Of a stretch of 64,000 nt of DNA, positions 10,490 to 64,000 are shown piece by piece. This DNA is from Octopus vulgaris (Eukaryota). Each line of letters starts with the position of its first letter. The stretch's first letter is position 1. The notes below the pieces were generated by a model. The model saw only the letters and a program-made list of their open reading frames with translations. It was not told the DNA's origin and did no database searches. The DNA is taken from contig OX597823.1 in the NCBI GenBank assembly GCA_951406725.2, positions 42,222,001 through 42,286,000 of the forward strand, given 5' to 3'. A program made the translations under genes and the position numbers.

Positions 10490-11026
10490 CTAGTACGTGG
10501 CCAGTACTTCATTTTATATACTTCAATTGTATTTTAAGTGCTTGATTGGTACAGTATTTTAATGACTTCAAAAGGATGGAAGGCCAACTTGAACGTGGCA
10601 GAATTTGAACTCCACCATCTTACTAATAATAATTGTTTCTAATGTAGGTACAAAGTCAGAGAATTTAAGGTGAGGGGGTTAGTTGATATTGACTGCAGTA
10701 TTTTATTGGTACTTTATTTTGATCAACCCTGATAGGATATATGACAAAATTGATCTCGGCAGGATTTGAACTCAGAATGTGATAATAATCCTTACTAAAT
10801 TTCGGCATAATGCTAACAAATTTAGGGAAAGGGATAAGTCAATTACATGGACCCTAGCACTCAAATGGTACTTATTTTATTGACACTGAGAAGATGACAG
10901 GCAAATCTGACCTCAGAATTTCAACTCAAGACAGAAACGAGACAGAAGTAATGTTACTAAGCATTATATGTGACATACTAATGGTTCTGCCAGCCTGCCA
11001 CCTTCGATGATGATGATGATGATGAT

Positions 11027-11084
<58 letters not shown>

Positions 11085-12071
11085 GATAACCTTCCTACTA
11101 AAGGTACAAGACCTGAAATTTGGGGGTAGGAGAATAGTTGATTACATCGAATCACTGATACTTGATTTATTGATACCAAAAGTATGAAAGGCAAAGTTGA
11201 CCTCAGCGAAATTTGAACTTAGAACATGAAGACAGACGAAATACTGCTAAGCATTTTGCCCAGTGTGCTAACAATTCTGCCAGCTTGCCACCTTAATAAT
11301 GACGATGATGATGATGATGATAATGTCCTAATTCAGTACCAGGCAGTGACTTTCATGGCTTCTTATCTTGATTGACTGGAAGTGTTAACATGTACATGTT
11401 TTGTGTTGCTTTAAAAAGATGAGCTATGACCAATTGACCATGTCCTTTAGTGGCTGACAATATGTGCATCTCTGATCACAAACAGGAGTTGTGTGTGAGA
11501 GCATCATAGCCATGTGTTGAGAGGAATTCTTTGAGGTTTGGATACTTCACTCCTGGAAACATGGATGTTTCTTTCAACAACCTTAAACAACCGTTATTCA
11601 GGGACTTTTTGAATGGGACAGGCTACTCAACCTGAAGAAAATTCTAATTGGGTCCCACTTGCAAGATCTTGCACTATTTATCTTGATATGAGATCACCAT
11701 GTTACACACATATTGTTGTGATGCATGTGCCTCGTGTACTCTTATCAGACAGGTAGTCTTCATGGGTATATTGGGCTTCATATATTTGTACCCCAGTGTC
11801 ATTTTGATGGTACACACTGTTCTTTCATTCAATAGTAATAATAATAATGATGATGATGATGATGGGTTCAATTTTTGCACAGTACTTTTGGTGGGAAGGA
11901 GACAGTCAATTATGTTGACCCCAGTACCTAACTGATACTATTTTTTCAACCCCGAAAGGATGAAAGACAAAGTCGACCTTGGCAAAATTTGAACTAAGAA
12001 AGTAAACAGCTTGAAGAAATGCCACTAAGCATTTTGTCCAACATGCTAATGGTACTGGTAGCTCACCACCT
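10490..12071 (-). mobile_element. Cluster of head-to-tail family B SINEs separated by (TAA)/(TGA)n, with a LINE-like insert at about 11325-11830
   Basis: Repeated gaatttgaactcagaa B-box motif at about 10600, 10765, 10918, 11210 and 11986. Confidence 0.7.
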
Positions 12072-21450: not shown

Positions 21451-22284
21451 TAATTAATTAATAAGGGTGAGAGAATTAGATACTAATTTAATAGTATGTC
21501 TATTCAACACCAAGTGGCCTAGTGCTCCGAGAAACCTGGATAATTATAATATTTTATAATATATTATAATATTTTTACAAAATAAATATAAGAGAGTGGT
21601 CACTATATGGCTCACTCTAGCACCAGTTAATCCAAAAGGTTTCAACCACAAAAATACATGTTTCCCATGAAAGTCAGTACGATTGTTAGCTCACACGGAC
21701 AGGGCAAATAAAAAATAACAAAAATACAGATTATTTTGGGACAATTGTTTCGCTATTAATGAATTAAATGTAATTTTACTTACAAAAAAATCCACTTGTA
21801 GCTCGTCAGCCAAAACTATCTGGATGAAATCCACTCAATCACACACCAGATTTTACCATAACGATAAATACACGTGTGGTTCAATTGATTACATCCGACG
21901 TTATAATTCAAATGCCCCAACTAACAGCGCGCCAAACTTTCACGGAAAACAAATACTGCATTTAGAAATAAATGCAGCATAATTATAATTAATTAATAAG
22001 GGTGAGAGAATTAGATACTAATTTAATAGTATGTCTATTCAACACCAAGTGGCCTAGTGCTCCGAGAAACCTGGATAATTATAATATTTTATAATATATT
22101 ATAATATTTTTACAAAATAAATATAAGAGAGTGGTCACTATATGGCTCACTCTAGCACCAGTTAATCCAAAAGGTTTCAACCACAAAAATACATGTTTCC
22201 CATGAAAGTCAGTACAATTGTTAGCTCACACGGACAGGGCAAATAAAAAATAACAAAAATACAGATTATTTTGGGACAATTGTT
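21451..22284 (-). mobile_element. Non-coding retrozyme-like or Penelope-pLTR-like element; 535-bp period, about 1.56 units, inserted in (TA)n
   Basis: 21451-21749 is repeated at 21986-22284 with one mismatch seen. It contains the hammerhead, is flanked by TA tracts, and has no substantial ORF. Confidence 0.82.
21734..21815 (-). ncRNA. Type I hammerhead ribozyme, fully canonical
   Basis: Minus strand reads TTTTGG CTGACGA GCTA-(43 nt)-TAGC GAAAC AATT GTC^CCAAAA: 6-bp stem I, 4-bp stem II, palindromic stem III, GUC cleavage after 21740. Confidence 0.88.
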
Positions 22285-31368: not shown

Positions 31369-31406
<38 letters not shown>

Positions 31407-31615
31407 GGGAGCGAGCTGGCAGAATTGTTAGCATGCCAGGCAAAATGCTTAGCGGTATTTTGCCTGTCGCTATATTCTGAGTTCAAATTCCACTGAGGTT
31501 GGCTTTACCTTTCACCCTTTCACCCTTTTGGGGTCAATAAATTAAGTACCATTGAAACTGTAATCGACTAGTTCCCTCCCCAAAAATTTCAGGCCTTGTG
31601 CCTTTAGTAGAAAGG

Positions 31616-31689
<74 letters not shown>

Positions 31690-31922
31690 GACACTGAAAA
31701 ATGGCAAGCTGGTGGAATCATTTGCACATCAGACAAAATGTTTAGCAGCATTTTGTCTGTCTTATGTTCCAAGTCCAAATTCTGCTATGGTTGGCTTTGC
31801 CTTACATCTTTTTCAGGTTGATAAAATAAGTAACAGTCATGTACTGGGATCAATGTAATTGACTAGCCCTTGCCCTCCACCCCACCCCCCAAATTTCAGA
31901 CCTCATGCTTATGATAGAAAGG
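31407..31922 (+). mobile_element. Two tandem SINEs (family B) embedded in (ATT)n
   Basis: GGGAGCGAGCTGGCAGAATTGTTAGC...GAGTTCAAATTCC...AGAAAGG followed by (ATT)n. Further copies at about 5392, 33225 and 33470. Confidence 0.8.
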
Positions 31923-41102: not shown

Positions 41103-42240
41103 ACACCCAGAACCACGCTAATAGCTTAGGAATGAAATTTAGGATTCCTCAGTTTTCTGTAAATCGATTTTGTTAAAACTTTTCCCAGCTGGTTTGAACA
41201 CAATGGCAACACCATTGTTATGTTTTCATTTTTCTGTGTGACGTCCTTTGTTTTGTACTTTAGATTCTTCAGTTTCTGGGTGAACCATGCTAATAGCTTT
41301 TGAATGAAAATTGCCCATCTGGACATTTGTTTTCAGAAAATGAGGGGAAATGATAGATATTAAGCATACATTGAGAATATATTTAACAGAAAAACCATAA
41401 TAATATTTTAACATTTATGGACCTAATGAATTATTTTGCCACATGAGTGCCATTTCAAGGGATAACTTCAAAAACCCTACTAGTCGTGGAATCTGTCAAT
41501 TTCTTAATAGTAGCTGGTTGGACTACCTCTGCTGCAGCTTTGATAGTTGCCCATATGACATTTTTTTATGTAAATTGGCGTCCATCAGCATAAACATCTT
41601 GTTTAATGATGGACCAAAGATTTTCAGTAGGGTTAAGATCCAGAGATGCGAGCAGCCACACCATCAACCTTTCACCTTGTATGTTGTAAGACCCTAGGAA
41701 TGTTTGGGTGCTCCTAGCAGAGTGGGAGGGAGCATTGTCATGCATGAATATGAGATTCCTTAGAAATGACCACAGTATGTCATTTAGCCAGGGATCCAAG
41801 ACCTTCAGGAGATTGCTGTAGGTGATTACGGTCACCTTAACCTCTTCAGGCACCCTGGCTGGGCCAAAAAGTCTGCCCCAATGATACCAGCCCACAACGT
41901 GCTCCTCCACTCTGTTGTTGATGTCATTAATATTGGTGGTGCTCCTCTCCAAAATAGACCCAACCATCAGGTTCATCAAAGGTTGCCCTGGTTTTGTCAG
42001 GGAACAGAAAACTGCTTATGTTTAATGTCATGTACTTTTGGACCCATTGAAACCTCAGACTCCTGTGAGGGATTCTCACACAGAAGCTATGGTCCCAATG
42101 ATGTGATTTCTGGTGGTTTTTGGTACATGAGGAAGTCCAAATGTGGTGAAAATGGCTTTTCTTGTTTGTCTGGGTTTCCCATATAACTTGGGGCCTTAAA
42201 TCTTTAGCTGTCACAGTCTTGGAGGTCCTACAATCAGATC
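41102..42240 (-). mobile_element. Decayed Tc1-like (DD34E) transposon fragment
   Basis: Motifs FPDKTRATFDEPDGW, IFMHDNAPSHSAR and SLDLNPTENLWSIIKQ across frameshifted ORFs. Confidence 0.88.
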
Positions 42241-47342: not shown

Positions 47343-50300
47343 TGGTGTGAGAAGTGTTTAAGTGATAGTTATTATAGAGAAAATATGAAATACAGAGTGA
47401 AGTGGAGGAATGAAAACAGGTGTGAGATACGTAAGGATATTGTATCTGCAGTTCCATCATTTAAGCAAAATGATGTATATACAAGTTTCCAGTACCTTGT
47501 GTATGAGTTCCAATGATGTTTATAGTTGGTCATTCCAAGCATAGAGTCTTGTAAATGGTGTTCAGCAAAATGTACTTGATTTAGTCAAGGTTAAACATTA
47601 ATGAATACAGGAGTTGTATGGGAGCTACTTCAAATTTTATGCTTAGATACAACAATAATCAGACAGGCTTGTATAGTGTACCGTGCACTTTAATCTTGAG
47701 AGAAAAAAATAAAAGTAAAACATAAAAGGAAAAAGGAGATGTGTGTGTGTGTGGGGTGGGGGGTAAGTGTGCATGTGTGTGTATGTAAGAATGTGTGTAT
47801 CATGGCTAGATTGGCACGTTTTTATACAGAAATTATTGCATCTCTAGTGACTTTAAAATGTTCACCTTTCCACAAGTGGTTACGTCTTCTTTAAGAATAC
47901 AACAACATTAAATGTTATCATGCTAATATAATATTATAATTCTTATTTTCATGTATGGATAATCATAAATACAATTATAGCTTTCACTTTCGTACATGAA
48001 TAATCATAACATTTATATAATCATTGGTAGGTTGCTTTTATTTATTTTATTTATTTTTTTATGCTTTTATTTATTTATTTTGGGATGTGGAGGCAGGTAA
48101 TCCATATTTGTTGGTGTAATCTTCATTCTTCTGTTTTTTGTAGAGGTAAAATTTAGTCATAGTCTGTTGAAACTTTTAGAGATTTTGCTATAGTATTTTC
48201 AGGTAATGTTTAATGTGTCTTTGTAGGTATCAGTATATTCTTCATGGAGCAATGTACAGAGTGTTGCTGCCTCTTGTTTACAATTCATGTTAGGAAAGCA
48301 CTCACATTGGAGTAGAGCTAATTATAATTAATGTTTGTTTTTATGTCAAATTTCTGTATTTTAACTTCAAAGTAAAAGTTTACTCATCGTTCTTTACTTG
48401 AGAACATATTCGTTTTTTTTTTTGTTTTTTTTTTGTATTTTTGCAGTAGCGTTTATATTTACACTAGTCATATTTAACTGGTGTGTTTATGTCAAGTCTC
48501 TTTATACCCTCTGACTAAGTGACTCAACAAATAAGAGATAACTGAAATAAGTAATGGAGAGAGTAAGTTCAACTAAACCAGTAAAAGTATTGCCCCAGCA
48601 TGGACACAATGCAATATCAGAAACCAATAAAAGCTTTAAAGAAAATTAAAGAATACAAAACGTAGTCCATCCTTATGGTAGTTTTAGACATAAATCATCC
48701 TTCTCTATTTTTATTTTTTGAATAAACTTGGAACTTATTTTGTAAATTACATTAGAATGAAAGAGAAATCCAAACTAGATGGTGTTTAAGTTATTTAACT
48801 GTAGGTTTCTACTATGTGACTAGCTACTAAAAGTTTCAGCTTTATCTGTAGCTCATGTGCTTCTGTTAGCAGCAGCTGTACGCAGATAAAATTTAGTGTT
48901 CGGATTTTAAAGTCTGCATTATTGATCAAGTTTCAGAAGCTTGCTATAATAAATTTAATTAAAAATATAGCTAAACCCACTTATTTAACCCATAACACAG
49001 AATAATAGTGATTTTTATCGTGAAAACATTTTCACTTTATTGTCTTTTGAATTTCCTCAAGATATTAACGAACATCTACTTTTTAAAATATTTCAAGCAC
49101 AACTTCAAATAACAAGTTGATTCCGAAAATGGTTTCCGCATTGACGAATTATTTTGGCATCTTATGCTTTCTATTACTTTCCATAATTGACTTGTTTCAA
49201 CAAACATTAAATTGACTGGCAGTCATGTTTTATTGGGGATGTTATAATTTCTCTAAGCTTTTAACCTATGACATTTCACAGAATGTGGCAATCGGGTGTG
49301 GGGCAAGAATTTAATGAAAATATCATACTCATAGAAGCAAAATGTTTTATACTCTTGAGTAAGTCTAAACTGAGTACTTACCAATTTCTTTTTTTTAGTG
49401 AAACAAAAAGTGTTTTTAACTAATCAGATTAGTTACCTAATTAATTTGCTTGTTTGTCATTATGATTTTTAAATCAAGTATTTCTATTTCTAACAAACTT
49501 GAAAAATTTAAACAAGATAGAATCTTTTTCTATATATCTTATGCATTCTAATCATTGAACCGTGACCATGCTGGGGCATCACTTACAAGGCTTTTTTTTA
49601 GTAAAACAAATTCATCCCAGTACTTGTTTTTAAGTTTGGTACATATTCTATCAGTCACTTTTGCCAAACCACTAAGTTATGGGAATGAAAACAAACTAAC
49701 ACTAATTGTGAAGAGTGTTAGGGGTAAAACACACATACACAAACACACACACACATAAGATGAAATCCTTTCAGTCTGTCAATCAAATCCACTCTCAAGG
49801 ATTTGGTCAACCTAGAGCTATAGTTAGAACTTACCCAAAGTGCCATACTGTGGGATTGAACCTGAGACCACATGGTCAGGAAGCAATCTTTCCAATGATA
49901 CCATCACATTTATGTTTTTTTCTGTGAATAAAAATTAATCATTGAAATATTCAGTTTGAAGTTCTTGTTTGACATTTGTTTGCTTAATTTGATTTGTCTA
50001 TAATACAGACTGGAATTGAAGATTTTGGAAAAGTTCTTATGCTCATTTTCTATCACTATTTCCTTTTTTTCAAATGCTGCTAGAGCATTATGATCACCAA
50101 TTTTTGTTTTGGAATATTGTCATATAAATCAATCAGTTTTAACTTTTTATACATCTTTGAACATTCTTACATTATTTTCCATAAAACCGCTCATTATCTT
50201 TTATCAATTCATGTTATAACTTCATAATTTTATACATTACAAACTGTTTCTTTCTACACCTGACTACCAGTAATAAGAGTTGGTGCCTATTTGCCCTGAA

Positions 50301-53088: not shown

Positions 53089-53613
53089 TATGTTTTCTGG
53101 AAAATAATGTAAAATGTTCAAGGATGTAACAGATAAAAATGGCTAATTTATATGACAATATTCCAAAACAAAAATTGGGGATCATAATGCTCTAAGAGCA
53201 TTTGATAAAAGGAAACAGTGATAGAAGTAGAGTATGAGAAATTTATTCCAAAATCTGCAATTCCAGTCTGTATTATGAATGTTAGACAATTCCAGGTTAA
53301 ACAAAATAATGGAGAACAAGAACCTCAAACTGAATATTTCAATATTTAATTTTCATTCACAGAAACAAGTACAGATGTGGCTAAGTGATTGAGAAGCCTG
53401 TTTTGTAAGCATGTGGTCTCAGTTTCAGTCCCACTTTGGGCCAGTTCTACTATAGCTCTAGGCCAACCAAATTCTTTTGAGTGGCTTTTGAAAGAAGGGA
53501 TAACATTGATGTATATACTGTTAGTACAACAAATGAACTATAGAAAAACAAAATATTTTAAGACTATATACAAATACAAAGATTATATATATATATACTG
53601 TTTTTATTTGCAG

Positions 53614-56326: not shown

Positions 56327-59300
56327 ATAAGCTAAAAAATATCAACCTTGGTTCTTGGAATGTGTGCACTCTCCGAGACAGTCACTCAGCTCCAGAGTGA
56401 AAAACAGCACCAGTTGCCCTTGAACTACAGTTAGAAGAACATAAAGGGGGATACATATCTTTCTGGTGTGGAAGAAATGAAGATATGCCATGCCACCTAG
56501 GTGTTGGTTTTGCCATTAAAACAGAAATAGCTAGATCCCTTTCTTTCTCTACCCTAAAGTATTTCTGACATGTCATGATACTAATGTTGGAACTTGATCG
56601 CAACACTCATGCTATAATTGTCAGATGGTATGCCCCAACCATGGCCAGCACTGAGCAGGAAAAGGTTGAATTTTATCATAGGTATAACTTATCCTTATTG
56701 ACAACTTTAACACTCATGTTGGTACTGACTACCAGGTATGGGAGGATGTTATTAGTTGCTACGTTGTAGGTTGAATGAACTCCAGGGAATTCAGTCTAAG
56801 CATCACAAATATCTTTTTTCAATAGCAGAATTGTTGCAAGATGCCCTGAGTGCATTCTAGATCTAAGGATTGGCATCTTATAAACTACAATATCACTCAG
56901 AAATGAGATATTAGGAACTTTAGCATTACACATTCCTTTCATAACACCTGCTGTCTCTCTGACCATTTTCTTCTCTCTAGTAAGGCTATGTTCCATTTGA
57001 AATACACAAGACTACAAAAGTCATCAGTGCTTAAGTGCATTAATGTTCTGCATTTGAAAACTTTTGGAAGCAGACTGAGCTTTCTATCAAGTTGGACACT
57101 GCACTCGGCTCTGCATGATGCAATGCACTGTGCATCTGTAAAGGTTCTTGAACTTCCTATTCATAAACATCAAGATTGGTTCAACAATAACAACACAGAT
57201 GTCCAAAAGTTGATAGATAAAATGCACAGCTCTCACAAAAGATGGATAAATAAAAAGATAAATAAAAAGAATTCATCCAGAAAAGAGAATACCTACAAGA
57301 AATGCTGAAGCCAGGACCAACATGCTCTGAGACAGATGAAGGATGCTTGGTGATCTTTGAAGGCTACTGAACTCCAAGAAGCTGCAGACAGAAAGGATTC
57401 TAAAGCCTTTTATGATGGCCTCAAGGAAGTGTATGGTCCTCAAGAGGACCAAGAGCATGGTGTTACTCCTATTTTTTCATCGAATAGAGAGAGACTGCTG
57501 ACTGACAAATCTAACATCTTGAAACGATGGAAAGATCACTTTGAAGCCATGTCGAACTTCGCCTCAGTCACTAATGATGATATCATATCTGTTCTACAGT
57601 ACACTGAAATACCGGAACTGTCTCTGGAGCCAGCCTTCCTGGGAGTGGTAAACACTGTTAAACAGATCTCCTCTGGCAAATCATCTACCAGGGATGCTAT
57701 CCCTCTTGAAATCTACAAACATGGTGGACAGAACCTTTTTAAGAAACTGCATTACCTCTTCATAAACATTTGGAAGGTAGGCTGTGTACCAGAGGACTTC
57801 AAGGAAATAGAAGTGTCTGTGATAATCATCATGGAATATCGTTTCTGTCTATCGCTGGTGAGATTCTTGATTGACTCATACTTGCCAAGATCATCAAACA
57901 TATTATAAATGATATCTATCCAAAATCACATTCTGGTTGTGGCAGTATTGACATGATCTTTTCCCTCCAACAGATCATGGAGAGGGTATGTGAGAAAAAT
58001 CAAGAGTTGTTTTTGATATTCGTTGACCTTACTAAGGCCTTTGACATTGTTAACCAGCAAGCACTATGGAAAGTCCTGAAAAAGCTTGGTATACCTGACA
58101 AAATGGTGAATGTTATCATCTCCTTTCATGAGAGAGTGAAGGTTGCTGTCATGTCTGGTGTGGAATCTTTGGCTTCCTTCGACGTTACAAACAGCACAAA
58201 GCAAGGTTGTGTTATGGCCCCTGTTTTGTTTGCACTCTTCTTTTCAGTGATGCTGAGGTATGCTTTTGGTGACATACAAAATGGTGTCAAATTCCAGTTT
58301 TGAACAAGTGGTGGGCTATTCAATCATCAGCGTTTCAAAGCCAAAACTGCTACGCACTAGTATCATTCATGATCTATTTTTTGCAGATGACCTCATAGTA
58401 GTGACTTACTTAGAGGAAGCTCAAGAACTACTAGACCGGTTTTGTGCTGCATGTAGAGCTTTTGATTTGACCATCAGCATAAAGAAGATGGAAGTAATCT
58501 ACCAACCTTGTCCTACACCTAAACAAATTCAAGGTGTCAAGCAAAGGCCACCAGTTCACAGTTTTTCTGACACTCCTATAAAGGTTGACAGGAAAAGCCT
58601 AAATTATGTGAAGTCATTTACATGTAGTAAAGTGAATTTGAGCCCTTCCCTTCATGATGAAATCGTCAACCATCTTGCAAGGGAAACCAACACATTTGGC
58701 AAACTCTGTCATCACCTATGGAGTGAAAGGGGCATCCAACTTGACACCAAAGTACAGGTCTATAAAGCAGCTATTCTCACTACTCTCTTGAACAGCTCAG
58801 AATTGAGGATACCCTATAGACGACACATTAACCTTCCACAAAGACTGCCTGAGGAGAATCTGGTTATTCACTAAAAGACAAAGTTTCTAATGCCGACTTG
58901 TTTAGCCAGTGTGAGATTGGTGGGATTGAGAGCTTCCTTATACAATCACAATTGTGCTGGGCTGGCCATGTTGTCAGAATTAGTTGACGAAAGAATGCCC
59001 AAAGTCCACATGTATAGCCAGCTTGAAAGTGGGCACAGGAATGCTGATCGATCATGACTCAGATATCAGTACAAGCTGAAGAGTAACCTCTTAGATATGA
59101 AGATAGCTCACAACACTTTTGAGCAAACAGCCTTGGAACAAACAAAATGGAGATTGTTGTGTCAAAATAGTATTGGAAACTTTGTTGCAACTAGCATTAA
59201 CAGGTTTTGGTGTGAAAGGCAAAGAAGAAAAGTAGCTGCAAATATACAACCTACCCTGACGTGTAATCCTCATACTCGCAACATCTGTGGCCCTCTTTGC

Positions 59301-60942: not shown

Positions 60943-61964
60943 TATATTATAACTTCATGTTATGAGGTTTCTGTCTGTTCTTACATATTTATTGAACCAT
61001 ATCATTTATATCTCCTGTTGATATACATTGCTATTTTCACCTTATAATATAACTGCATATTTTCAGTCAACTTGTATTCATATTTTCCATCTTGAAATGG
61101 CAACTGTTTGCAATTGTTTCTATTCATATGTCCTACAACATGTTCACCTGAAATTCATCTTTCACTGTATTCATGCATTGCCATATATATATCCATATTT
61201 CCTGTGTGTTGGTATGTATAGTTCTTTCACATATGGTCATACAATCCTCATGTGTTATTTATGCTTGCATTTATTCCAAAACTGAAGTAAAAAAAGTAAC
61301 AAAAAAAGGAAAATGATATTAGTATTTGATATTTGTTTTTATTGGTTCTTGGGTTTACATTATGGAGAAAACATTTTTGGGGGTAACATAATGTCATATG
61401 TAAAAAATACATACAACCATATGTATTTCTATGAGTATGAAGAACTATTTTTATACATCTCTTTATGTACATAAATATCTGTAAATAATATGCATATATA
61501 TTAGTTTTATTTTTGATTCTTAAAGCAAAAAAAAAGTACAAAGTGCCCATGCCACTTATATATTGGAATATTTCTGGAAGTTTGTGTATTTATGTGTGTG
61601 TGTGTGTGAATACGTGTACATGCATGTATATATGTTGGGATTTACAAACTTGCGTATATGTGTGTATTTTACATGAGCATATGTATGACCCTACAAATGT
61701 GTATCTATCAAGCAGACCATGAATGTGTCTGTCTTTGTATTCATGTAGTTTTCAGTTTATATTTGTACAGAAATCTACATATGAATGTGAGTATGTATGT
61801 TGCACATTCCTATATTCCTATATTGTATTCTTACTTAGCTCTATGTCTACATACAACTACAAAATCATTTTTTTTTCTATTTTCCATTTGTGTATCATAA
61901 TTGAAATATTCTCATAAACTAACGATATTCTTATATTCATTCAATATCTGCCAAAAAATCCCCA

Positions 61965-63350
61965 TTGTGAAATACTATCTCAATTTCAGTGTTGTGAATT
62001 TTTGCCTAAAAATCATAATTCTGACATTCTCTCTAAAATTCATGTTTGTGAAACTCTGCCTAAGTACACAGTTGCTAAATTCTGCCTAAAATTCACTGTT
62101 GTGAAATTTGTAGGCAACCTCATTTGAATCCAGTGTTGTCATGTGTTAATGAGAGTCATCTTGAGTTATCTCCCCTGTCACATCGTTAACAACTAGGTGG
62201 CGCTTGTTAGATAGATATAAAAAGACGCGCACAGCCAAGTAACATCCTCTGCCCCTCTCCCATGCGGCCTGAAGCTAACTACCTCTTCTACATCTCTGTT
62301 CCTGCTATGGGACAACCCTCTGTTGATTTGAATTTTGTTAAATCCTCTATACCATTCGTGGAAGGCAGCAAGACAAAAGCCTTTGCTTATTCAGCTTCCA
62401 TTCTGTTCTCTTGAATGATAATATACAAGATGTGTATAAATGCTCTCATCCCGGATCGGAATAAATACTCCATGTGCATGAAGTCTTCATGTTGTTGTTG
62501 TTCCTCACTGGATTAATTCCTACGGCTATCGAAGGATGATTGAACATTATATTAAATTAGTGGGCTAAAAGCTCGCTAAAATGGTGACCCCGATGTCAGA
62601 AACTATCCGATGGATAGTTTCCTTAAACAACTACAACTTGTATGAGTTTTCGAAGACTTCATGTACATGAAGTATTTGTTCCGATCTGGGATGAGAGCAT
62701 TTTTACACAGCTTGTATATTAACATTGAACAAAACAGAATGGAAGTTGAATAAGAAGAGTCTTTTGTCTTGCCACCTTCCATGAACGGTATAGAAGATTT
62801 AACAAAATTCTAATCAATGCAGGGTTGTCCTGTAGCATGAACAGAGATGTAGAAAATGTAGTTAGCTGCAGGCTGTGTGGGAGAGGAGAGGAGGATGTTA
62901 CTTGGCTGTGCACGTCTATTTATATCTATCTAACAAGCGCCACCTAGTTGTTAACGATGTGACAGGAGAGATAACTCTAGATGACTCTCATTAAAACATG
63001 ACAACACTGGATTCAAATAAGGTTGCCTACAAATTCTTCCCAAAGTTTGTAGTTGTGAAATTCTGCCTAAAATTCACAGTTGGGAAACTTTCTCTAAATT
63101 TCACAGATATGAATTTATGTCTAAATTTCACAGGAGCGAAATTCTACTTAAATTTCAGTTGTGAATTTTTGCCTGAAATTCACAGCTGTGAGATAAAGCC
63201 TAAAATTTCACAGTTTAACATTTGAGCTTAAGATTTGCAACACTGAAATTCTGCATAAATTTCTCATTCTGAAATTCTACCTAAGTTTCACAGGTGTAAA
63301 TTTCTGCCTGAATCTCAGTCATGAAATTCTGCTTAGTTGCGAGATTCTAC
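61965..63350. repeat. Degenerate 27-bp minisatellite split by the inverted-LTR element
   Basis: Unit approximately GTGAAATTCTGCCTAAA(A/T)TTCACAGTT at 61965-62108 and 63032-63350. Confidence 0.8.
62109..63031. mobile_element. Inverted-LTR / long-TIR element with an internal tRNA-Trp PBS and a 4-bp TSD
   Basis: TGTAGGCAAC...GTTGCCTACA ends; arms of about 380 bp (62109-62488 and 62652-63031); AATT on both flanks; TGGTGACCCCGATGT at 62582. Confidence 0.85.
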
Positions 63351-64000
63351 ATACAAACGTTATTTGTTAAGAAAGAAGTTAATGATGAAAAAGAAGGCAA
63401 AGAAAAATAACAAAACAGTAGATCTACAGATATGGCCAAATACTTACTGCTGACCTGGCACAACTAAATAAGCTTGCCATGTTGACTACCTGTAGGACAT
63501 ATTGTATAAAAGGAGAAGGCAGAAACTAGGTTAAAACGTGTTTCTATTCCATCTTATGTGTGGAGTGGGTTGAGATCTTTAGTCTCTGGATTGACAAAAC
63601 ATTTTACAAAATGGTTATTAATCTCCTCAAATTTTCTCCCACCCCTTACTTCAAGCCACTTCACCTTCTTAAACATGTCAACAGCTCCCTTCTTTCAGAA
63701 TCCAGGACTTCCACTCTGATACACATAAAACAAGATAGCTATTCGCTTCTTCCTTTTTTGACTCCACTTCTTCATTATTGTCATCCCCCTGTTCATTATC
63801 CTTTTCTTCTTCCTCCTCATTATAATCCTCTACCTACTCTTCCCTTTTTCATCTTCCTTCTCCAACCTCAGTGATCGTTAACAATTCTAGCTGGTCTAAA
63901 TTTTTGTCCTCAGAGAGAGAGTAAGAGAGCATTCCTTCTTTTGACTTGGCTGTGCCATCTGATGTTTCTCATTACTCTCAGATGACTTTATTCTCTCAGA

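Follow-up and report, generated by a model that had tools for sequence, protein, structure and literature searches.

The window, by which we mean the whole 64,000-nucleotide stretch of Octopus vulgaris DNA analyzed here, is AT rich (mostly 30 to 39% GC) and contains many microsatellites, and we take it to be repeat-rich DNA. Close to its right end, a satellite with a 27-bp unit is interrupted by an element of 923 nt that starts with TGTAG and ends with CTACA (62109 to 63031). The element carries two inverted arms, and when the AATT that borders it on each side is included, the arms (62105 to 62488 and 62652 to 63035) are 384 nt long and 89% complementary without a gap. Without the AATT, the arms are 380 nt long and differ at 41 positions (K2P distance, 0.116). 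A first-pass annotation had described a 923-bp element with TGT...ACA ends and diverged inverted arms of about 380 bp, and the arm alignment bears that description out. The features of the locus are collected in Table 1.

Table 1. Features of the element and of the satellite that surrounds it (positions in the window)
Feature	Position	Strand	Basis
Host 27-bp satellite, left part (insertion target)	61947-62108	+	TRF; phase test
Target-site duplication AATT, left copy	62105-62108	.	Letters; phase test
Complete 5' LTR, 472 nt, 3' end +/-1 nt	62109-62580	+	Loose ends of differing sequence before 62109 and past 62580-62582
TATA box TATAAAA of the left LTR, putative function	62216-62222	+	Letters
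Putative polyadenylation signal AATAAA, with a GT-rich tract downstream at 62490-62502	62460-62465	+	Letters
10-bp stem-loop with two wobble pairs, at the U5 end	62557-62579	+	Folding
tRNA-Trp primer-binding site (PBS), pairing at 14 of 15 nt with the mature 3' end, CCA included	62582-62596	+	Motif search; tRNA sequence from PMC6379413
Perfect 10-bp hairpin with a 3-nt loop: leader start and its inverted copy; proposed fold-back point	62599-62621	.	Folding; stem count in the window; ends of other PBS-bearing contigs
Inverted LTR copy, about 406 nt: U3, R, and first part of U5	62626-63031	-	Arm alignment; contig joints
Target-site duplication AATT, right copy	63032-63035	.	Letters; phase test
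Host 27-bp satellite, right part, in the orientation and phase of the left part	63036-63332	+	TRF; phase test

Architecture of the element

Read from left to right, the element consists of a full 5' LTR, a PBS, about 13 nt of leader, a loop, the leader bases inverted, a gap of 95 nt, and an inverted U3, R, and part of U5. The arm alignment places the second LTR in inverted rather than direct orientation, and the 95 nt absent from it match 62503 to 62597, the remainder of U5 and the PBS. The first-pass annotation had read TATAAAA at 62216, AATAAA at 62460, and a PBS-like word at 62582 as parts of an LTR, and all three are present at those positions. Judging from the TATA box and the polyadenylation signal, U3 would extend to about 62245, R to about 62485, and U5 to 62580. 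No open reading frame of at least 120 amino acids was found within the element, and no polypurine tract precedes the second LTR, the longest purine run in the center being 5 to 7 nt. Normal LTR reverse transcription requires a polypurine tract and the usual arrangement of LTRs. With both U3 ends facing outward and no polypurine tract, normal retrotransposition is impossible.

The 15-mer at 62582 is the sole match to the PBS motif with at most one mismatch in the 64 kb, and the motif arose in none of 100 shuffles. The match includes CCA, which argues against descent from a tRNA gene or a SINE; no Rfam family or tRNA gene was detected in the window, and such an origin of the PBS is unlikely. PMC6379413 prints the mature tRNA-Trp 3' end to which the word is complementary, and PMC5029493 gives the same word as the primer site of chicken endogenous proviruses.

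Behind the PBS, the perfect 10-bp hairpin reported by the first-pass annotation was confirmed, and a second 10-bp stem was added to it at the end of U5. The 163-nt center, which includes both stems, folds better than 200 of 200 shuffles (z = -4.4). Perfect stems of at least 10 bp outside microsatellites number three in the whole window, the leader hairpin among them, and the probability that a perfect 10-bp hairpin lands by chance in the 43-nt non-LTR center is about 0.001. The predicted fold of the entire 923-nt RNA (-625.6 kcal/mol) was set aside as a sign of function because such a value is trivial for any inverted repeat.

The longest identical run between the arms is 48 nt (62174 to 62221). 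It contains a 15-mer, present in both arms (62190 to 62204 on the plus strand and 62936 to 62950 on the minus strand), that we take to resemble the CTCF core motif; the two sites are convergent. No further copy of the arm was found elsewhere in the window. Look-alikes at 63860 to 64000 were rejected, as 49 and 24 of 300 shuffles scored at least as high as their 29 and 26, and the background maximum was 41.

The insertion site

The element sits in a satellite that, within the window, is confined to the two tracts flanking it and that is AATT rich and quasi-palindromic. The site reads AAATTC, and 22 AATT words lie within 459 nt of host satellite. When overlaps of 0 to 8 nt were removed in turn (n = 9), only the removal of 4 nt restored the satellite phase, with a unit match of 0.82 versus at most 0.64. 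Because 4 nt alone puts both satellite sides in phase, AATT is a true duplication in length, and the short target-site duplication (TSD) of LTR retrotransposons (4 to 6 bp) is present at 4 bp. The phase test thus upholds the initial observation that AATT lies on both sides with the satellite resuming in register. It had also been cautioned that AATT is palindromic and the TSD therefore ambiguous. The orientation of the duplication indeed cannot be read from the letters, yet its length of 4 bp is supported by phase.

The arm belongs to a multicopy LTR family

Part of the element was present in 20 of the 24 sequencing runs listed, and the runs span nine studies and five coded organisms. No RNA data set was listed among those with the element, from which nothing follows about expression. 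From 61900 to 62730, the window (left flank, left arm, center, and 79 nt of the right arm) was compared at 80% likeness with contigs of 4 of the 24 runs, X1, X4, X8, and X10, each from a different organism (A, B, D, and E). The arm was multicopy in all four, with 290, 197, 186, and 130 contigs aligned, and most family contigs were 80 to 95% alike to the left arm. Unrelated flanks appeared before 62109 in two of the four runs among the rows listed (4 contigs each in X1 and X10) and behind 62580 to 62582 in all four (10 and 8 contigs in X1, 6 in X4, 9 in X8, and 5, 4, and 2 in X10), where agreement among the flanks was 0.44 to 0.58. Summed depth in X1, which is a depth of contigs and not a copy number, fell from 2,469 at 62544 to 62571 to 35 at 62600 to 62627, and the drop was similar in the other runs. 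Sharp heterogeneous ends at 62109 and about 62580, with a PBS adjoining, are the pattern expected of solo and 3' LTRs. We conclude that the arms are LTRs and that the PBS is genuine.

The left part is a multicopy unit with unrelated flanks at both ends and a PBS directly behind it, and the PBS-like word, complementary at 14 of 15 positions, stands where the family unit stops and occurs in other copies without the mismatch. That mismatch had no counterpart in the other PBS-bearing copies (one contig in X1 and two in X4). The expectation that the arm would recur as an LTR elsewhere was borne out as far as a multicopy LTR-type unit in four of four runs.

Other family members also inform the limits of the arms. 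The right arm reaches further inward than the left, to about 62626, and continues family sequence there; near 62488, the left arm is about 12 nt shorter than other copies (contig joints 62491|62638 and 62504|62625 for both). The window copy has the TG start and lacks CA directly before the PBS; in X1 and X10, the loose ends behind 62580 have a consensus, of low agreement, whose first letters are CA. Flanks that start behind 62581 open with ATT by consensus in X1, X4, and X8 (agreement, 0.48 to 0.54), hinting that the family may favor AATT-like targets. Internally deleted versions of the LTR were seen in the family as well, with joints 62135|62549 and 62195|62508 (skips of 413 and 312 nt), some with short filler. 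A 24-nt U3 motif had no exact match in metagenome contigs, and a motif spanning PBS and leader had none in viral contigs.

The family is probably of the Ty3/gypsy type, an assignment that draws on the TGTAG start, the 4-bp TSD, and the Trp PBS; neither an internal region nor a protein of the family turned up. The element shares with Ty3/gypsy retrotransposons the TG start, the TATA box and polyadenylation signal within the repeat, the PBS after the LTR, the 4-bp TSD, and the many copies with unrelated flanks. It differs in that the second LTR is inverted and has lost most of U5, the polypurine tract and gag-pol are missing, and U3 occupies both outer ends.

The two-armed unit is a single old insertion

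In the analysis of contigs, depth at the central junction (62609 to 62622) was that of a single locus in two runs (16.0 versus 15.9 for the unique flank in X1; 30.2 versus 33.6 in X10). In X8, two contigs with a common change in the PBS gave a junction depth of 44.1 versus 27.1 for the flank, and the contigs of X4, a run low in depth, had zero depth there. One X10 contig (record 16) spans 62511 to 62718 with 20 differences. As the junction is bridged in an independent organism, it is not an assembly artifact. Contigs running from the left flank into the arm were present in all four runs (records 1, 17, 25, and 9), the one in X8 by only 13 nt, and none of the pieces listed spanned the full stretch from 61900 to 62730. 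Single-locus junction depth in A and E, with a left flank common to four organisms, means that the element is a single orthologous insertion that was in place before A and E split. The opposite-strand joint 62070|62105, seen in X1, X8, and X10, is most simply the end of the right arm with its satellite flank. No empty site was found among the loose ends listed for the locus. Contigs drop rare variants and show presence rather than absence, and no inverted-repeat family of the whole unit was detected among the rows listed for the four runs, a result that concerns this junction and not inverted pairs joined elsewhere.

Recurrence of the whole structure at other loci, which the first-pass annotation had proposed to check, was not supported: depth is single-locus in X1 and X10, exceeds the flank in X8, and finds no coverage in X4. 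Most likely the element is old, dead, noncoding, and single, with no sign of renewed movement.

How the arms came to differ bears on whether they had one template or two. Arm divergence is 10.8% (confidence interval, 7.9 to 14.4), and the window differs from organism E by 7.5% (40 of 531 positions; confidence interval, 5.4 to 10.1) over records 9 and 16. Both values agree with an insertion whose arms were initially identical and whose age is about one to two times that of the A-E split. CpG-type differences account for 13 of the 41, including four sites with TG in one arm and CA in the other. A step between outer and inner divergence near the U3/R border had a best-breakpoint p of 0.013, which rose to 0.25 after removal of the 13 CpG-type differences; at a fixed cut at 141 nt, the corrected p was still 0.025. 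Different templates or terminal selection, each of which the step might have indicated, were dropped after the CpG correction. The organism E orthologue, judged by distances to alignment ends, carries the family letter at 62121, 62145, 62162, 62670, and 62678, so several arm differences would be younger than the split. Finally, among 22 majority-variant sites drawn from the 40 variants listed of 384, 19 are arm differences with the majority letter in the other arm, and 3 have the minority letter in both arms. The three common minority letters lean slightly toward one template, with which the arm data appear compatible.

Discussion

How an LTR acquires a second, inverted copy of itself within one TSD is best explained by an error of reverse transcription. 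We give an even chance to a fold-back during reverse transcription that produced a palindromic cDNA with two U3 ends, which then integrated once. An aberrant LTR cDNA with two U3 ends was among the readings that the first-pass annotation offered, and it is the best one given the ends of the LTR family, the PBS, the single junction, and the one TSD. Shortly after the second strand transfer, the plus strand of U3, R, U5, PBS, and about 13 nt of leader would have folded back at the 10-bp hairpin. Copying back would have skipped 95 nt, comprising the PBS and the structured end of U5, and run out to the tip of U3. The opposite strand would then have been completed, perhaps from a second plus-strand strong-stop DNA, to leave a linear palindromic molecule with a U3 attachment site at each end. 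Integrase could have joined both ends to a single AATT of the satellite, and the arms, alike at insertion, would have decayed neutrally since.

By both the arm alignment and the phase test, the inverted stretch ends precisely at the LTR tip and AATT. Such a stop is obligatory for a fold-back cDNA because use by integrase requires it. Several points temper the case. LTR leaders often carry native stem-loops. In the other PBS-bearing contigs, alignment ends short of the loop, at about 62604 in X1 and 62607 in X4, and these stops may be simple contig ends. Thus, the hairpin need not be a scar of fold-back. Moreover, a molecule capped by a hairpin has one attachment end, so that an extra step must be supposed, and since AATT is palindromic and common in the satellite, a rearrangement after integration or a double insertion can yield the same ends.

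A rearrangement after integration is the leading alternative but unlikely. A normal provirus would have inserted at AATT, and a later break or fork stall in the leader would have led to fold-back at the hairpin and to copying of the 5' LTR in reverse. In a last step, the right flank would have been rejoined by microhomology between the inverted U3 tip with AATT and the end of the old 3' LTR with AATT, and the interior would have been lost. The hairpin, the single-template arms, and the one TSD are explained equally well by this sequence of events, the self-complementary AATT and the inverted LTR tip ending in CTACA would supply several nucleotides of microhomology, and the deletions near the center on both arms fit the decay of a chromosomal palindrome. 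The switch, however, must hit the boundary between LTR and TSD exactly in a satellite that offers 22 AATT words and many inverted matches of 72 to 82%, and no different state of the site was seen in the four runs among the rows listed. A local rearrangement, which had been named at the outset as an alternative, is accordingly disfavored, as the exact stop at the boundary would be one option among many. Two templates are a poorer prospect still, and we consider them quite unlikely: either two family members inserted tail to tail at one AATT and deletions then removed the center, or the U3 ends of two cDNAs were integrated and the inner ends repaired together. Inverted LTR tandems with a palindromic target at the junction are described for Rover in Drosophila, as are deletions across tandem junctions (PMC5932611), and the difference between the arms is about that of family members from the left arm. 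Age alone, however, would account for the arm divergence, the center (62582 to 62625) holds no copy of the target site, though one could have been deleted, and only chance would have made the cut so exactly symmetric that a 10-bp leader hairpin remained. A double insertion at the site, also proposed initially, thus leaves the junction without a target copy and the symmetric hairpin unexplained and is likewise disfavored.

That the element is a nonautonomous cut-and-paste transposon, with terminal inverted repeats (TIRs) from two LTRs and moved by a Ginger-like transposase or a gypsy integrase, is improbable. In its favor, Ginger has the same TGTNR ends and 4-bp TSD, and such an origin is proposed for Ginger1 TIRs in PMC2836005. 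A second opposite-strand joint, 62181|62489, which connects internal LTR positions, occurs at single-locus depth in X1, X4, and X8 (13.2, 5.2, and 21.7) and is a candidate for another inverted LTR-LTR structure elsewhere in the genomes. Against transposition as a unit, the junction is single-locus in X1 and X10 with flanks common across organisms, and the U5 end at 62580 has many heterogeneous flanks, which show spread as an LTR and not as a two-armed unit. The TSD matches neither CCGG/CCGT nor RTATAY, and a transposase is lacking. A nonautonomous TIR family, or an intermediate between gypsy and Ginger that has moved as the first-pass annotation envisaged, is not supported, given the single-locus junction in A and E, the common left flank, and the definitions of Ginger. 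As for an ordinary MITE or foldback element with a chance PBS match, the long TIRs, short TSD, and lack of coding capacity would suit it. The contig comparison effectively refutes this account, to which we attach almost no probability: the family unit ends sharply at 62580 to 62582, just before the PBS, in four of four runs, other copies match tRNA-Trp at the mismatched position, and the shuffles never gave the PBS motif.

How the element compares with known transposons follows from its ends and its arms. Ginger1 elements are described with TIRs of 40 to 270 bp, a TSD of CCGG or CCGT/ACGG, and an integrase-like transposase, and Ginger2/Tdd elements are described with a preference for RTATAY targets and TIRs of about 50 to 300 bp (Bao, Kapitonov, and Jurka 2010, PMC2836005). 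The TGTNR start is one that the same paper reports for gypsy LTRs. With both groups, as PMC2836005 describes them, the element shares TGTNR termini (here TGTAG), inverted terminal repeats, and a 4-bp TSD. In contrast to Ginger1, its TSD is AATT rather than CCGG/CCGT, its arms are 380 to 406 nt versus 40 to 297 nt in the tables of PMC2836005, and it has no transposase and no second copy of the unit detected in contigs, which cannot prove absence. In contrast to Ginger2/Tdd as characterized there, its site AAATTC is AT rich but not RTATAY, its arms are longer, and multiple insertions of the unit were not detected in contigs. The element is not a member of Ginger1 or Ginger2, as target site, arm length, transposase, and recurrence all fail. 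GingerRoot, with the 6-bp TSD and TA ends given for it in PMC6839031, was rejected as unlike the element.

Two other comparisons concern the arrangement of LTRs. Inverted tandems formed by double insertion (McGurk and Barbash 2018, PMC5932611) resemble the element, as the paper presents them, in having inverted LTR elements at one site and a palindromic target motif. The element differs from them in that its junction is a hairpin without the target motif and what remains is LTR, PBS, and a few bases of leader; deletions spanning the junction are described in that paper for other tandems. The element is also short and noncoding and has an LTR and a PBS, features that it has in common with TRIMs. 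TRIMs are short noncoding elements with direct LTRs, a PBS, and a polypurine tract, multicopy as whole units, whereas the element has inverted repeats, lacks a polypurine tract, and, as a whole unit, yielded no second copy in the contigs. In the open-licence literature, we found no description of a natural U3-U3 LTR pair framed by a TSD, older subscription papers on aberrant proviruses being outside the scope of that search.

The element is genuine and unusual, yet most likely a rare, single accident of a known kind of element. It is a natural record that DNA with two U3 ends can reach the germ line with a proper TSD. PMC2836005 speculates that Ginger1 TIRs come from two LTRs in opposite orientation, by a route of two separate insertions with the integrase between the LTRs. 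The geometry supposed there really arises, possibly in one step, and the hypothesis becomes testable through TSD-flanked inverted LTR pairs and the recurrence of their junctions. Being dead, noncoding, and single, the copy shows the substrate and not the transition. Annotation pipelines would misfile such an element as a MITE. We speculate, as a long shot, that reverse transcription in the family repeatedly produces leader fold-back as a by-product, with joint 62181|62489 as another case, and that the fold-back yields integrase-competent U3-U3 palindromes, some of which were remobilized by cut and paste. If so, U3-U3 palindromes would be ready-made TG...CA TIR cassettes with a 4-bp TSD and would offer a one-step route from a gypsy LTR to a Ginger-type TIR instead of the two-insertion route (Bao et al. 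2010).

Other features of the window

We note several further repeats in the window. A broken reverse transcriptase gene of the non-LTR type lies on the plus strand in several frames (56907 to 58874), with an RVT_1 match at 57875 to 58300. On the minus strand, a DDE_3 transposase fragment below the Pfam cutoff (about 41566 to 42015) is presumably a decayed Tc1-like element. Two pairs of inverted dispersed repeats at 74 to 78% identity (49785 to 50187 with 53092 to 53488, and 10824 to 11324 with 31375 to 31876) are probably separate old insertions. Finally, a direct repeat of 299 bp at 99.7% identity, with copies 535 bp apart (21451 to 21749 and 21986 to 22284), is either a recent local duplication or an assembly duplicate.
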